Assembly: GCF_030013205.1 (NCBI RefSeq) | Contig: NZ_CP122648.1 | DNA length: 64,000 nt | Direction: 5' to 3' (one strand) | Source of the DNA: Escherichia coli | GTDB taxonomy: Bacteria > Pseudomonadota > Gammaproteobacteria > Enterobacterales > Enterobacteriaceae | Shown here: positions 57,988-62,969 of the stretch, one piece after another | How the letters are laid out: every line of letters starts with the position of its first letter | Numbering within the stretch: the first letter of the stretch is position 1 | Program-made: the position numbers and the translations under genes | Notes under the pieces: model-generated | Seen by the model: only the letters and a program-made list of their open reading frames with translations | What the model was told of the DNA's origin: nothing | The model's database searches: none

Positions 57988-58619
57988 AACTTCCGGAGAT
58001 CCCTGAATTTCCGCTCCCCACCTGGATGAATAAAGGCGAGCCGTTAACGCTGGCACATTCATCGCATCGCTACTGGGAAAAGGTATACAGCTGGCTGACG
58101 TGGCCACTACAGCAGATTGATGTCGACACCTGCGCAGAGCCTTTACTTAACCTGCTGGCTTATCAGCGCAATATCACCCGATTTAAAGGTGAGCCGGTTT
58201 CGTTATTTCGCTTAAGAGTGAAACACGCGTTTATTAACGCTCAGGACTCTGGCGAACGCGCCGGCTTCGAACGCATCTTTAAGCGTCTTGGCGTGGGAGA
58301 CGTTAAAACACTGGAACGGCAACTGCAGCATGACTGGGACGTTATTTTACTGCGCATTAATGACACCCAGTTAAGTGAAAACAACGCGCTGATGATGCAG
58401 CTCGTGCGCCAGTATGGTCGTACCTGCAGGCGCTATTTCTTTCAGGTAATCAATACAACCACTGCCCGGCTGACAGCCGGCACATTTGATGGCCATTACA
58501 GGTATCACACAGCAGAAGCAACGGTGAGAAAGGACACCATCTGGTTAACCGCTTCGCTACAGGCAGGACATTACGGCCTGTCCGTGGAACATTACACATT
58601 ACAGGCAGATGAAGCATGA
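57984..58619 (+). CDS. Tail/baseplate protein (P2 gpI position)
   Basis: 211-aa ORF, overlapping starts and stops with neighbouring genes. Confidence 0.5.
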   Translation: MKLPEIPEFPLPTWMNKGEPLTLAHSSHRYWEKVYSWLTWPLQQIDVDTCAEPLLNLLAYQRNITRFKGEPVSLFRLRVKHAFINAQDSGERAGFERIFKRLGVGDVKTLERQLQHDWDVILLRINDTQLSENNALMMQLVRQYGRTCRRYFFQVINTTTARLTAGTFDGHYRYHTAEATVRKDTIWLTASLQAGHYGLSVEHYTLQADEA

Positions 58620-60544
58620 GCACGATTATTACTGAACAGTACGAACACTGGTGCGCAAATCAAATCATCAGTGGAAAACCTGCGCGCCCGGATACATTTG
58701 TTTTTGCATATATTCCGGGACAGGATGAATCCGCAGAGATCCCCTGCGATGAGATACTCCCTGATGAATCCATGATTCAGTATCGTGCGCCGGTCACCCA
58801 GTACGGCCTCCTGTCGCCGAACGCGACCGCGTTTTCCATCATTCTGGACACGACAGTCGGCGACTTCGAATACAACTGGATCGGTCTGCTGAACGAAGAA
58901 AGTGGCGTGCTCTGCATGATTGCACACACACCTCGTCAGCAAAAAATTAAAACAGCGAACGGCGTGCAGGGAAACAACCTGATCCGCACATTTTCCATGG
59001 AGTTTGACGGCGCAGCCGCAGCAATGCATATCGATGTCAGCGCCGATGTCTGGCAGATTGATTTCACTGCACGCCTGGCCGGAATGGATGAAGCCCGCCG
59101 ACTGCTGGCATTTGATCACTATGGTGAAGCCGCTTTTCTGGGGGATGGTTTTCAGGTCAGCTATCAGGATGGTACCGCCACTGTTGCCGCCGGCATCGGG
59201 TATGTGGGAGGTCTGCGCGTCAGCCTGCGCGAACCTTACAGCCTGCCGGCTGCTGTCGGGGATACCCTCTGGATTGATGCAAGCTGGCAGGGATTTGTTA
59301 CCGGCGAATGGAGCACCGTTTTTACGTTCTGCGCTCGCAAGGAACACGCGCCCTATACAGACGGGAACGGTTTCCAACACTTTGTCGCGCCACTTGCAAA
59401 ACTGACAGCAGGTGGCCCACAGGATTTACGCCCACAGACGCCCGACGAAGAGCAAAGCAACGCGCTGGCAGAACACGAAAAATCCCGCAGACACCCGGAT
59501 GCCACGCTGACCGAAAAAGGCTTTGCGCAGTACAGCAACGCCACCGACAGCGATGCAGAAGACCGCGCCGCCACGTCAAAAGCGGTAAAAATCGCAATGG
59601 ATAACGCCAACGCACGTCTTGCGAAAAATCGCAACGGCAGCGACATTCCCAATAAACCGCTGTTTATTGAAAACGTCGGACTGAAACCCACCGTTGATAA
59701 AGCTGAAAGCGCCGTTCAACGCGCTGGCGACACCATGACCGGGGAACTGAAAATCCGTGGTGTTAATGCACTGAGGATTTTCAACGAAGCCTTTGGTCTG
59801 ATTTTTCGTCGCTCGGAAGAGTGCCTGCACCTTATCCCTACCAGTGAAGGTCAGGGCGAGAATGGCGATATTGGCCCACTGCGGCCCATTTCCATTAACC
59901 TGCGCCAGGGCGATGTGGTTATTGGTGACAGGATTGGCATCGGTAATGAGAACAATCTGGGTGAAAAATCACTCACGCTCTGTGATAGCAATACCGGTTT
60001 TAAGTGGGGCGGACGCGGTGTTATTAATGTGTTTGCAGAGGGACACAACGCCTTTCGTTTTACAAAAAACGGTGTGCTGGCATTAGAAAATCTCTCGACC
60101 GGCAATTTAAGAAAGTTCACGCTGTCGTGTGACAGTTCTTCCACGAAGAGTGCAAGATTTAATCTATGGGGAAATTCCTCAAGGCCTGTTGTTGCAGAGC
60201 TTGGTGATGATTCTGGCTGGCATTTTTACAGTCAGAGGAATACGGATAACAGCATAACGTTTGCCGTAAACGGGCAGATGGTTCCATCAAACTACGGAAA
60301 CTTTGATGCCCGCTATCAGCAGCGAAATGGCGGCGTGCAGGATGTGCGTTATGGTTCCGAAATGTATTACAACCCGGGAGGTAACCAGGTATCCTGGACA
60401 TTTCGCTCACCTTCAGGCCACGGGTTATCCGGTATTAATGTGCAGGAAACCGGAAGTAATTCGGCAGATAACATCGGCGGCGTGTATTACCGTCCGCTTC
60501 AGAAACTGATTAACGGCACCTGGTATAACGTGGCGAGTGTTTAA
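58616..60544 (+). CDS. H: Tail fibre protein 1 with a P2 gpH-like C-terminal receptor-binding region
   Basis: 642-aa ORF; C-terminus ...NLWGNSSRPVVAELGDDSGWHFYSQRNTDNSITFAVNGQMVPSNYGNFD...LINGTWYNVASV resembles the P2 gpH C-terminus as recalled. Confidence 0.8.
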   Translation: MSTIITEQYEHWCANQIISGKPARPDTFVFAYIPGQDESAEIPCDEILPDESMIQYRAPVTQYGLLSPNATAFSIILDTTVGDFEYNWIGLLNEESGVLCMIAHTPRQQKIKTANGVQGNNLIRTFSMEFDGAAAAMHIDVSADVWQIDFTARLAGMDEARRLLAFDHYGEAAFLGDGFQVSYQDGTATVAAGIGYVGGLRVSLREPYSLPAAVGDTLWIDASWQGFVTGEWSTVFTFCARKEHAPYTDGNGFQHFVAPLAKLTAGGPQDLRPQTPDEEQSNALAEHEKSRRHPDATLTEKGFAQYSNATDSDAEDRAATSKAVKIAMDNANARLAKNRNGSDIPNKPLFIENVGLKPTVDKAESAVQRAGDTMTGELKIRGVNALRIFNEAFGLIFRRSEECLHLIPTSEGQGENGDIGPLRPISINLRQGDVVIGDRIGIGNENNLGEKSLTLCDSNTGFKWGGRGVINVFAEGHNAFRFTKNGVLALENLSTGNLRKFTLSCDSSSTKSARFNLWGNSSRPVVAELGDDSGWHFYSQRNTDNSITFAVNGQMVPSNYGNFDARYQQRNGGVQDVRYGSEMYYNPGGNQVSWTFRSPSGHGLSGINVQETGSNSADNIGGVYYRPLQKLINGTWYNVASV

Positions 60545-60546
60545 CA

Positions 60547-61104: not shown

Positions 61105-62397
61105 ATGAGCGCACTGTTGACGAAAGCATTTGAAAAGTGGGTTGCTGAATGCGCAGCCAGTAATTTACCTGCACGCCCTGACGCTATTATTTTTGCTCTG
61201 ATGGAGCGGGAACCAACGCGCGAAGATAATACCGTTCCGGAAGAAAAAATCACATATGCTGTGAATGAACTGACCTATGGCCAGTTAAACCCGAACAATA
61301 TTGTGTGTAGCGCGGTTGTTCCTGATGACTGTGCATTCAGCTATGACTGGATTTGCCTCATCCATCAGGCCAGTGGAACACTATGCGGCGTAATAAAAAC
61401 GTCTGTTCAACAAAAAGTAACAGGCGAGTCACTTATTCGTAATTTCACGATTATATACAGCGGCATTGCTCAGGCTGCGCAAATTACCGTTCCTCCACAG
61501 AGCTGGCAGGTGGATATTACCCCCGAGCTGAAATCAATGCTGAAAGCTCCTAACCGACTGTCAGAAATTGCAGCAGAGGGGGAAGAGGCGCAACAGGAAT
61601 CCCGAGACAATCTGGGGTTGAAAGGTGCTGCTTTGCTTGATGTTCAGAGCGATATCTACGACCGCACCGCAGGCCGTCTGGCGTTACCCGGTGCATTCGG
61701 ATACGGGCATTTATTCTCTTCGTCGGAAGTCGTGTATTTCAGCGCGCAAAATGGCCCCGCCGAATTTCTTAAATGGGTATTTGAGGTCACACCAGGGCGT
61801 TATGCGGTAACGCAGTACGGTGGTTCTGGTAATTGGTATAACCCCATCATTGCTTATGATGGGGGGAATGTATATTTCAGGGGGCTTGTAGATATAGAAA
61901 TACGAAGTGGAATGGCCACTAATGGCACCGAAAGCAATGGTCGGTGGGTAACCTTTCATGGCGATGCCGAATACACTGGCCAGTATGGTGAGGGGCCGGC
62001 TAAGTATCAGGTATTGGTTACAAAATCAATGTCTTCGGCGACACTTCCCGGGGCATGGTCGCGGCTATTCTGGTCACGCGACCGACTGAGACAACTGTTA
62101 TGTGCAGGAGATACTACATCACAGCGTGCTCCGCAACCGGGTAGCCTGGTTCTTGCCGCATACCTGCCAGATAGCGGCAGCAGTGATGTTGCGTTACTTC
62201 GTGTACAAGCTGTGCCGGGCTCAAGGCTCCGGCAGGTGGTCTTCGAAGCGGAGTACCGCAGCTCGGGATTTAGTGCCGCTGCCAGGTCGTTTGTCTATGG
62301 GAGTACCCTGCCTGGCACATACTTCGCTTTATCAGGAGGCCCGGATGTCACGTTTTATAATCGGGGACTGGTTTCTTTGTTTGTGAGGGCTACATGA
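61105..62397 (+). CDS. Tail fibre protein 2 (paralogous N-terminus, different C-terminal domain)
   Basis: 430-aa ORF; its N-terminal ~150 aa parallels fibre 1 (LPARPDAIIFAL / KPARPDTFVFAY; SLIRNFT / NLIRTFS); C-terminus unrelated. Confidence 0.7.
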   Translation: MSALLTKAFEKWVAECAASNLPARPDAIIFALMEREPTREDNTVPEEKITYAVNELTYGQLNPNNIVCSAVVPDDCAFSYDWICLIHQASGTLCGVIKTSVQQKVTGESLIRNFTIIYSGIAQAAQITVPPQSWQVDITPELKSMLKAPNRLSEIAAEGEEAQQESRDNLGLKGAALLDVQSDIYDRTAGRLALPGAFGYGHLFSSSEVVYFSAQNGPAEFLKWVFEVTPGRYAVTQYGGSGNWYNPIIAYDGGNVYFRGLVDIEIRSGMATNGTESNGRWVTFHGDAEYTGQYGEGPAKYQVLVTKSMSSATLPGAWSRLFWSRDRLRQLLCAGDTTSQRAPQPGSLVLAAYLPDSGSSDVALLRVQAVPGSRLRQVVFEAEYRSSGFSAAARSFVYGSTLPGTYFALSGGPDVTFYNRGLVSLFVRAT

Positions 62398-62969
62398 TGC
62401 AGATTAAAGATATTAAAAACCCTCGTTACCTGGAATCTGGCGCGATTGACTGCGAGGTGCTTTTGGAAGGGATGGATGAAGCCGTTCCCTACACAGCCAC
62501 GCCAGAAGACACAGCAACAACAGGCCAGAAAATTTGGCAGGAGCTGCAAAGCGGCAAATGGGGCGAAATCGCCCCGTTCACCGTCACGCCGGAACTTATC
62601 GCTGCGGCAAAAGATGCCAAAAAGCGGGAAATCGAGGCGTGGCGTACAGAACAGGAAGCACTGCCGTTCACGTTCGAATGGAACGGTCGCACCTGGAACG
62701 CTGGCCCCGACTCAATGGCCCGTCTTTATCCGGTAGTAATGGCGGCGAAATCTGACACGGCGCGGGACGTTATGGCGTGGGGTGACGTCGATAATCAACA
62801 GGTGAGACTGTCAATGCCGGAACTGGAAGAACTGGCGACAGCAATGGCGCAGGCACAGGTCGATCGCAATGACGAGATTTATCGCCGTCAGCGACAGATG
62901 AAGGACGTGCTGGATAGCCTTAATAATCTTGCCGACATCCGCGCTTTTCAGGCTGGAGAGTCAGAATGA
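62394..62969 (+). CDS. Tail fibre assembly chaperone 2
   Basis: 191-aa ORF translationally coupled to tail fibre 2; acidic, Tfa-like. Confidence 0.6.
   Translation: MMQIKDIKNPRYLESGAIDCEVLLEGMDEAVPYTATPEDTATTGQKIWQELQSGKWGEIAPFTVTPELIAAAKDAKKREIEAWRTEQEALPFTFEWNGRTWNAGPDSMARLYPVVMAAKSDTARDVMAWGDVDNQQVRLSMPELEELATAMAQAQVDRNDEIYRRQRQMKDVLDSLNNLADIRAFQAGESE

Follow-up and report, generated by a model that had tools for sequence, protein, structure and literature searches.

Why should a P2-family phage carry two tail-fibre genes in tandem, when the pattern in P2 and HP1 is one fibre, and is the second of them a working part of the virion or a stray host-range module? The question is raised by a prophage in a 64,000-nucleotide (nt) stretch of Escherichia coli contig NZ_CP122648.1 (RefSeq assembly GCF_030013205.1; hereafter the window). 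The element is an intact prophage of the P2 family (Peduoviridae-like), and its tail is of the HP1 type. To a first fibre (F1) and its Tfa-type chaperone (T1) it adds a second fibre (F2), also with a PF12571 anchor, and a predicted chaperone of the DUF4376 type (T2), placed between the Tfa gene and the homologue of HP1 orf33.

We propose that the locus is a host-recognition module in which two working tail fibres each have a chaperone encoded just downstream; the genes would be co-transcribed in the late tail operon and both fibres assembled on the baseplate, giving a virion with two receptor-binding specificities and fibre tips that recombine. Taken as a whole, this account seems to us probable on balance. 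The evidence consists of directly observed gene integrity, homologies, operon packing, lineage-wide conservation, purifying selection and mosaic junctions; from it we infer transcription and translation of both fibres, their presence in the virion and their docking site(s). Judged from these sequences, display of both fibres is likely, and dual receptor specificity is plausible.

Organization of the Fibre Cassettes

The sequence-only reading of this stretch had placed two tandem fibre and chaperone cassettes at 58616-62969, and four open reading frames (ORFs) on the + strand occupy exactly these positions. The cassettes sit between gpJ/gpI-like genes and baseplate genes like HP1 orf33-35. All genes of the locus are on the + strand, and coordinates are positions in the window:

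56800..57987, + strand: gpJ/gp47-like baseplate wedge protein, 395 aa (PF04865, E 1.6e-31; RefSeq name, baseplate J/gp47 family protein)
57984..58619, + strand: gpI-like baseplate/tail protein, 211 aa (PF09684 Tail_P2_I, E 7e-5; phrog_1228, E 9e-82)
58616..60544, + strand: F1 (fibre 1), 642 aa, with PF12571 anchor, shaft and gpH-like tip
58616-59095, + strand: F1 anchor, aa 1-160 (PF12571)
59504-59629, + strand: F1 shaft, PF03406 repeat, aa 297-338
59666-60541, + strand: F1 gpH-like receptor-binding region, aa ~351-642, with similarity to P2 gpH
60547..61098, + strand: T1 (chaperone 1), 183 aa, Tfa/gpG type (PF02413)
61105..62397, + strand: F2 (fibre 2), 430 aa, with PF12571 anchor, linker LSEIAAEGEEAQQESRDNLGLK and receptor-binding domain
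61105-61545, + strand: F2 anchor, aa 1-~147 (PF12571)
61603-62394, + strand: F2 receptor-binding domain, aa ~167-430 (from ~aa 150 counting the linker LSEIAAEGEEAQQESRDNLGLK)
62394..62969, + strand: T2 (chaperone 2), 191 aa, DUF4376 type (PF14301)
62966..63679, + strand: X237, tail/baseplate-associated protein at the HP1 orf33 position (phrog_1677, phrog_31292; aligns with HP1 orf33 and SI7 gp22)
63651..64000, + strand: 5' part of the gene for an HP1 ORF34-type baseplate protein, truncated by the window end (PF25759, E 1.1e-53 on the full gene, L001:15852-16424)

The ORF34-type gene is followed by a gene for a 565-aa protein (X565) at the HP1 orf35 position, annotated as a baseplate protein. 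From the gpJ-like gene through X237, adjoining genes overlap or almost abut. The gpI-like stop and the F1 start overlap in ATGA, as do T2 and X237; F2 and T2 overlap by 1-4 nt, and the gaps measure 2 nt between F1 and T1, as for a Tfa/gpG chaperone gene, and 6 nt between T1 and F2. The RefSeq start of T2, an ATG at 62397 that gives 190 aa, is the better fit because it has a GAGGG Shine-Dalgarno sequence 6 nt upstream. A scan for sigma-70 promoters and terminators found nothing convincing between the cassettes, and the Ogr/Delta-type late-promoter motif TGT-N12-ACA was uninformative (20 matches versus 16.6 expected). Since baseplate genes lie downstream in the operon, transcription must traverse F2 and T2. 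Both fibres look functional because they belong to what appears to be an operon with translational coupling, in which essential baseplate genes come after them, and because purifying selection acts on both anchors as well as on T2 and the F2 receptor-binding domain.

Fibre 1 as a Counterpart of P2 gpH

The F1 gene comes directly after the gpJ/gpI-like wedge genes, as expected of a P2 gpH-type fibre, and its product matches PF12571 (DUF3751; phage tail-collar fibre N-terminal domain) with E 8e-29, above the gathering score. The gpH-like end and the gpG-like chaperone recognized by the sequence-only reading are borne out: F1 residues 351-642 align with P2 gpH residues 376-669 at 41% identity over 311 aa (E 3e-60), and T1, which matches PF02413 (E 1.7e-22), is 40% identical to P2 gpG (E 7e-46). 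Closer relatives are found in phage pPE4, where the C-terminus of gp67 is 97% identical to that of F1 and gp68 is 88% identical to T1. F1 also has a sequence match to the structure of Mu fibre S (5yvq).

On these similarities, F1 and T1 are taken to be ordinary members of the gpH/gpG kind. They resemble P2 gpH/gpG and HP1 orf31/orf32 in having a PF12571 anchor encoded after gpJ/gpI-like genes, a gpH-like tip and a gpG-like chaperone, and the flanking gene order is the same in HP1 and SI7 as in the window. F1 would thus be the canonical fibre, the counterpart of HP1 orf31 and P2 gpH, composed of anchor, shaft and gpH-like tip and folded with the Tfa/gpG chaperone.

Fibre 2 and Its Predicted Chaperone

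The alignment of the two fibres, which the sequence-only reading had set as a check, gives 36% identity over 177 aligned positions (the first ~170 residues) with E 3e-25, and F2 matches PF12571 above the gathering score (E 8.3e-13). The similarity of the N-termini is therefore significant, but to call the anchor "shared" overstated it: the two anchors appear to be distant paralogues, not one common sequence. Beyond the anchor, pairwise comparison finds the C-termini unrelated, as had been claimed, and the F2 C-terminus has no match to P2 gpH; thus, F2 shares only the anchor with gpH-type fibres. F1 and T1 lie between its gene and the gpI-like gene. The H fibre of P2 and the fibres of R-pyocins attach to the baseplate by means of PF12571 (PMC7882524, PMC4684702).

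The sequence-only reading had also given F2 a chaperone of its own. T2 shows no significant sequence similarity to T1 and has a C-terminal PF14301 domain (DUF4376; E 6.8e-15), and its gene overlaps the F2 stop, a position as for DUF4376 fibre chaperones. DUF4376 proteins are fibre chaperones by experiment, and are required for the fibres of Alteromonas V22 (gp27), of A5 (gp9) and of the Campylobacter CJIE1 prophage, as the H-fibre partner (PMC7289586, PMC10579305, PMC7882524). T2 is like these proteins in its C-terminal DUF4376 and in being encoded directly downstream of a fibre, and it is only from family membership and position that we predict it to be the F2 chaperone. F2 would accordingly be a lineage-specific second, short fibre, in which the paralogous PF12571 anchor is joined via a linker (conserved as LSEIAAEGE..RDNLGLK) to a receptor-binding domain dependent on a DUF4376 chaperone.

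Conservation and Age of the Second Fibre

The gpI-like protein recovered 27 related viral contigs; the order J-I-F1-T1-F2-(T2)-X237-ORF34-X565 is found in every close relative among them whose contig reaches far enough, and a prophage of E. albertii at a different chromosomal site has the same two-fibre layout. Full-length F1-type anchors occur in 46, and F2-type anchors in 47, of 5,426 complete E. coli genomes, the listed records being largely the same strains. In the protein database, dozens of clusters consist of full-length F2 homologues. The ratio of nonsynonymous to synonymous substitution (dN/dS, Nei-Gojobori) is 0.04 in the F1 anchor and 0.13 in the F2 anchor; the receptor-binding domain of F2 has 0.18 and T2 0.15-0.27, so that purifying selection acts on all four.

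The F2 anchors form a separate clade, outside the clade of the anchors of F1, the single-fibre relatives, SI7 and HP1. Identity between the F1 and F2 anchors is 30-37% in every locus, and the more distant relatives L029-L032 have one fibre only. On these grounds the second cassette appears to be an old, lineage-defining gain and not a recent capture in the present prophage. The suggestion of the sequence-only reading that the module was recently captured must be given up, as the two-fibre layout is fixed in this E. coli and E. albertii lineage and the F2 anchor belongs to an old separate clade. We also considered a recent tandem duplication of the F1 anchor, which is ruled out by the position of the F2 anchors outside the F1/HP1/SI7 clade. 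A second scan of viral contigs, made with the F2-anchor alignment, brought back largely the contigs already known, together with two short fragments (L040 and L042), and no lineage with an F2-type anchor as its sole fibre.

Modularity and Exchange of Fibre Tips

The order fibre, Tfa, second fibre and DUF4376 protein is the same in phiP27 (L54-L57), Rac-SA53 (tail1-4) and pPE4 (gp67-70) as in the window. To our knowledge these dual cassettes are annotated only, and we know of no functional study of them. The F2 receptor-binding domain is 76-78% identical to phiP27 L56, pPE4 gp69 and Rac-SA53 tail3, and T2 is 77-81% identical to phiP27 L57, Rac-SA53 tail4 and pPE4 gp70. In contrast to F2, however, the second fibres of these phages carry PF08400 (lambda-Stf-type) anchors (E ~1e-61 to 1e-63), which they share with one another, and their first-fibre N-termini and baseplates are unrelated to those of the window. 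Thus at least three unrelated tail backbones have this gene order, each with anchors of its own. Other database homologues of the F2 tip on PF08400 anchors reach 96% identity. That the F2 anchor travels with a common receptor-binding block was considered and rejected, since the homologues in phiP27, pPE4 and Rac are similar to F2 only from residue ~124-167 on.

We suggest that the tips of both fibres, as well as the whole F2 gene, would be exchanged by recombination with other Escherichia prophages. The GC content falls to 0.45-0.48 over the F1 tip, T1 and the F2 anchor (59750-61500), compared to 0.52-0.58 in the flanks, which is consistent with horizontally exchanged modules. F2 variants range from 285 to 842 aa and have swapped C-termini on a PF12571 anchor that is present in all of them.

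Some F2 variants depart from the arrangement in the window. In certain relatives (L013:6659-8599, L010:12894-13751), F2 has just 285 aa and extends barely beyond the anchor; in L013 a separate 352-aa ORF comes next. These short forms recall the "a-type" short DUF3751 proteins of Pseudomonas tailocins, VP882 and phiHAP-1 (PMC4684702). In L018, L020, L021, L025, L026 and L027, no DUF4376 gene comes between the F2 variant (350-842 aa) and the orf33 homologue, which suggests that their tips are chaperone-independent or self-chaperoned. One comparison also bears on the phages themselves: the baseplate proteins and fibre N-termini of "Actinobacillus phage vB_Apl-pPE4" (L003, PP818812.1) are 96-99% identical to those of E. 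coli phage Rac-SA53 (L005, KU052037.1). The host label of pPE4 looks doubtful, given these Rac-SA53-like proteins and the E. coli-type fibre tips.

Proposed Docking of the Second Fibre and Alternative Explanations

Several observations weigh against two functional fibres docked on one baseplate. The Shine-Dalgarno sequence of F2 (AAGAAG) is weak. HP1, SI7 and ESSI2_ev239 have HP1-type baseplates with one fibre gene, so that a second docking site is hypothetical. The AlphaFold2 model of F2 is of moderate confidence (predicted local distance difference test score, pLDDT, 64), and neither PDB sequence searches nor fold searches found a solved structural relative of the F2 receptor-binding domain. 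The PDB sequence search with F2, T2 and the gpI-like protein gave no matches; a Foldseek search with the F2 model gave no PDB match at E<1e-3, only weak anchor-like matches to baseplate proteins of phi812 and A511. Matches of the model in BFVD mostly span only ~150 columns, the length of the anchor domain.

Three weak leads hint at a distinct docking site for F2. First, the two anchor clades show no homogenisation and remain 30-37% identical to one another in every locus. Second, across 13 loci the diversity of the F2 anchor is ~5x that of J, I, the F1 anchor, ORF34 and X565 (mean p-distance 0.24 versus 0.04-0.06), and the divergence of this anchor is uncoupled from that of J, I and the F1 anchor (rho 0.09-0.19; core proteins overall, Spearman 0.04-0.19) and tracks X237 best (Spearman 0.48), which could reflect linkage or physical interaction. 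Third, the gpI-like protein of two-fibre lineages has a C-terminal extension of ~25 aa (58540-58619, ...TIWLTASLQAGHYGLSVEHYTLQADEA) that is missing in L029, L030, SI7 gp19 and HP1 orf30; in this small and phylogenetically non-independent sample, the extension may be a candidate F2 docking site. A fuller version of our account would put two fibre sets at once on a minimal HP1-type baseplate, with F1 on the gpI/gpJ wedge, F2 at X237 and/or the gpI-extension site, and the F2 gene, with its anchor, an independently exchanging cassette able to take on the tips of Stf-anchored fibres from unrelated prophages as well. This version is tentative, and we hold it with somewhat less than even confidence.

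The serious rival is that F1 and F2 compete, through their homologous anchors, for the same six gpI/gpJ sites, producing stochastic mixtures on each virion as a form of bet-hedging. Both anchors belong to PF12571 and have the motifs LPARPD, Y[DN]WI[CG]L, LIR[NT]F and WQ[VI]D in common, and one-fibre relatives have the same baseplate gene set. However, each of the three leads given above (the lasting separation of the anchors, the co-variation of the F2 anchor with X237 and not with J, I or the F1 anchor, and the extension of the gpI-like protein) counts against such competition, and we consider it rather unlikely.

Another possibility is a branched fibre, in which F2 would be held by F1, or by some other protein associated with the fibres, in the manner of certain T5-like or Ackermannviridae phages. 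The PF08400 anchors of the second fibres of phiP27 and pPE4/Rac-SA53 are 84% identical despite unrelated baseplates and fibre-1 N-termini, so in those phages the second fibre may dock on a module-borne component. F2 of the window, however, has not PF08400 but PF12571, the anchor domain of known baseplate-bound fibres (PMC7882524, PMC4684702), and its anchor does not co-vary with F1 or T1, which makes branching improbable here.

Finally, it is very improbable that F2 is a non-functional passenger or the decaying remnant of a host-range module captured in the present prophage: the GC dip, the weak Shine-Dalgarno sequence and the absence of F2 from L029-L032 and from isolated phages would fit this, but F2 is an intact ORF, in this prophage as well as in dozens of protein clusters, its anchor and receptor-binding domain and T2 are under purifying selection, the layout is kept lineage-wide, E. 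albertii included, and essential baseplate genes lie downstream in the same tightly packed, coupled operon, so that the non-expressed remnant named by the sequence-only reading as telling against it is not what we find.

Comparison With Known Phage Systems

In SI7 (Irrigatiovirus) and ESSI2_ev239 (Evevirus), which are isolated enterobacterial relatives, the HP1 order comes with a single fibre and Tfa pair. ESSI2_ev239, which had come up in two places, was considered as a second-fibre candidate and ruled out, since only one fibre is encoded in its tail locus. A second anchor in the tail locus is absent from all 78 phage records that match the F1 anchor (mostly HP1-like Peduoviridae), and our literature searches turned up no account of P2/HP1-like phages with a second fibre anchored by PF12571. 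The fold search pointed to two PF12571-like proteins in phage Kuja; this parallel was set aside, since Kuja is an Ackermannviridae phage with a different context.

Two receptor-binding ends, each with a chaperone, are likewise found within one phage in the Mu G segment (S-U/S'-U'), P1 C and e14 P. Those systems have an invertase and inverted repeats, whereas the window has neither, and its two fibres are complete, co-oriented and equipped with their own anchors. In agreement with the sequence-only reading, no invertase is annotated in the prophage, and no gix-like long inverted repeats occur in 56000-64000, where the longest inverted repeat is 28 nt with 75% complementarity. Since a Gin/Cin/Pin-type invertase, inverted repeats and opposed alternative exons are all lacking, the locus is not an invertible switch of the Mu/P1/e14 type, and expression of its two fibres would be simultaneous, not alternating as in those systems. 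Two receptor-binding proteins per virion are known from the long and short fibres of T4, from SP6/K1-5 and from Ackermannviridae; the phage of the window differs in being temperate, of ~34 kb, with a minimal HP1-type baseplate. The likeness to the two-step binding of T4 is offered as an analogy.

The Prophage and Its Surroundings

The prophage is inserted between pheA/pheL and raiA; E. coli ETEC4079 and RM10740 have a prophage that matches the region with 100% identity. Its annotation includes an integrase, a repressor-like helix-turn-helix protein, a gpA-type replication endonuclease and an ogr/Delta zinc-finger late activator, as well as head genes for the portal, the terminase and GPO/P2-type scaffold and capsid proteins. 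The tail module follows the HP1 gene order: tape measure protein, DUF2590, gpJ-like, gpI-like, fibre, Tfa, orf33-like, ORF34-like and orf35-like.

Other features of the region lie outside the fibre cassettes. At ~41581-42860, genes for a ParM-type plasmid segregation protein and a partitioning/stability protein lie beside the replication endonuclease gene, something not usually seen in integrated P2-like prophages. At its right end, beyond the window (L001:18951-20661; record 1282475-1284185), the prophage has genes for a hok/gef toxin, for a TM2-domain protein and for a Com-family regulator, the last followed by a DNA methyltransferase gene. We take the regulator and methyltransferase pair to echo com-mom of Mu; it occupies the place where Mu would carry the invertase gin. 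Upstream of the prophage, the host gene dgcN (diguanylate cyclase; ~27870-29095) is annotated as a pseudogene with an internal stop.

Implications

Dual receptor-binding proteins and fibre mosaicism are well known, and comparisons of P2 tail-fibre genes have reportedly long established tail-fibre mosaicism. The locus is thus a modest variation on well-known phage host-range modularity. The occurrence of the same tip and chaperone unit on PF12571 and PF08400 anchors is useful for predicting host range and for annotating receptor-binding proteins. PF12571 anchors are already in use to retarget pyocins. If both fibres are displayed, the locus would offer a compact, genetically tractable model for two receptor-binding proteins on a simple P2/HP1-type baseplate, and a natural template for dual-specificity phages or R-type tailocins. 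If, in addition, the two fibres occupy separate sites, a temperate phage of ~34 kb would have a two-receptor system like the long and short fibres of T4, or a broader host range.

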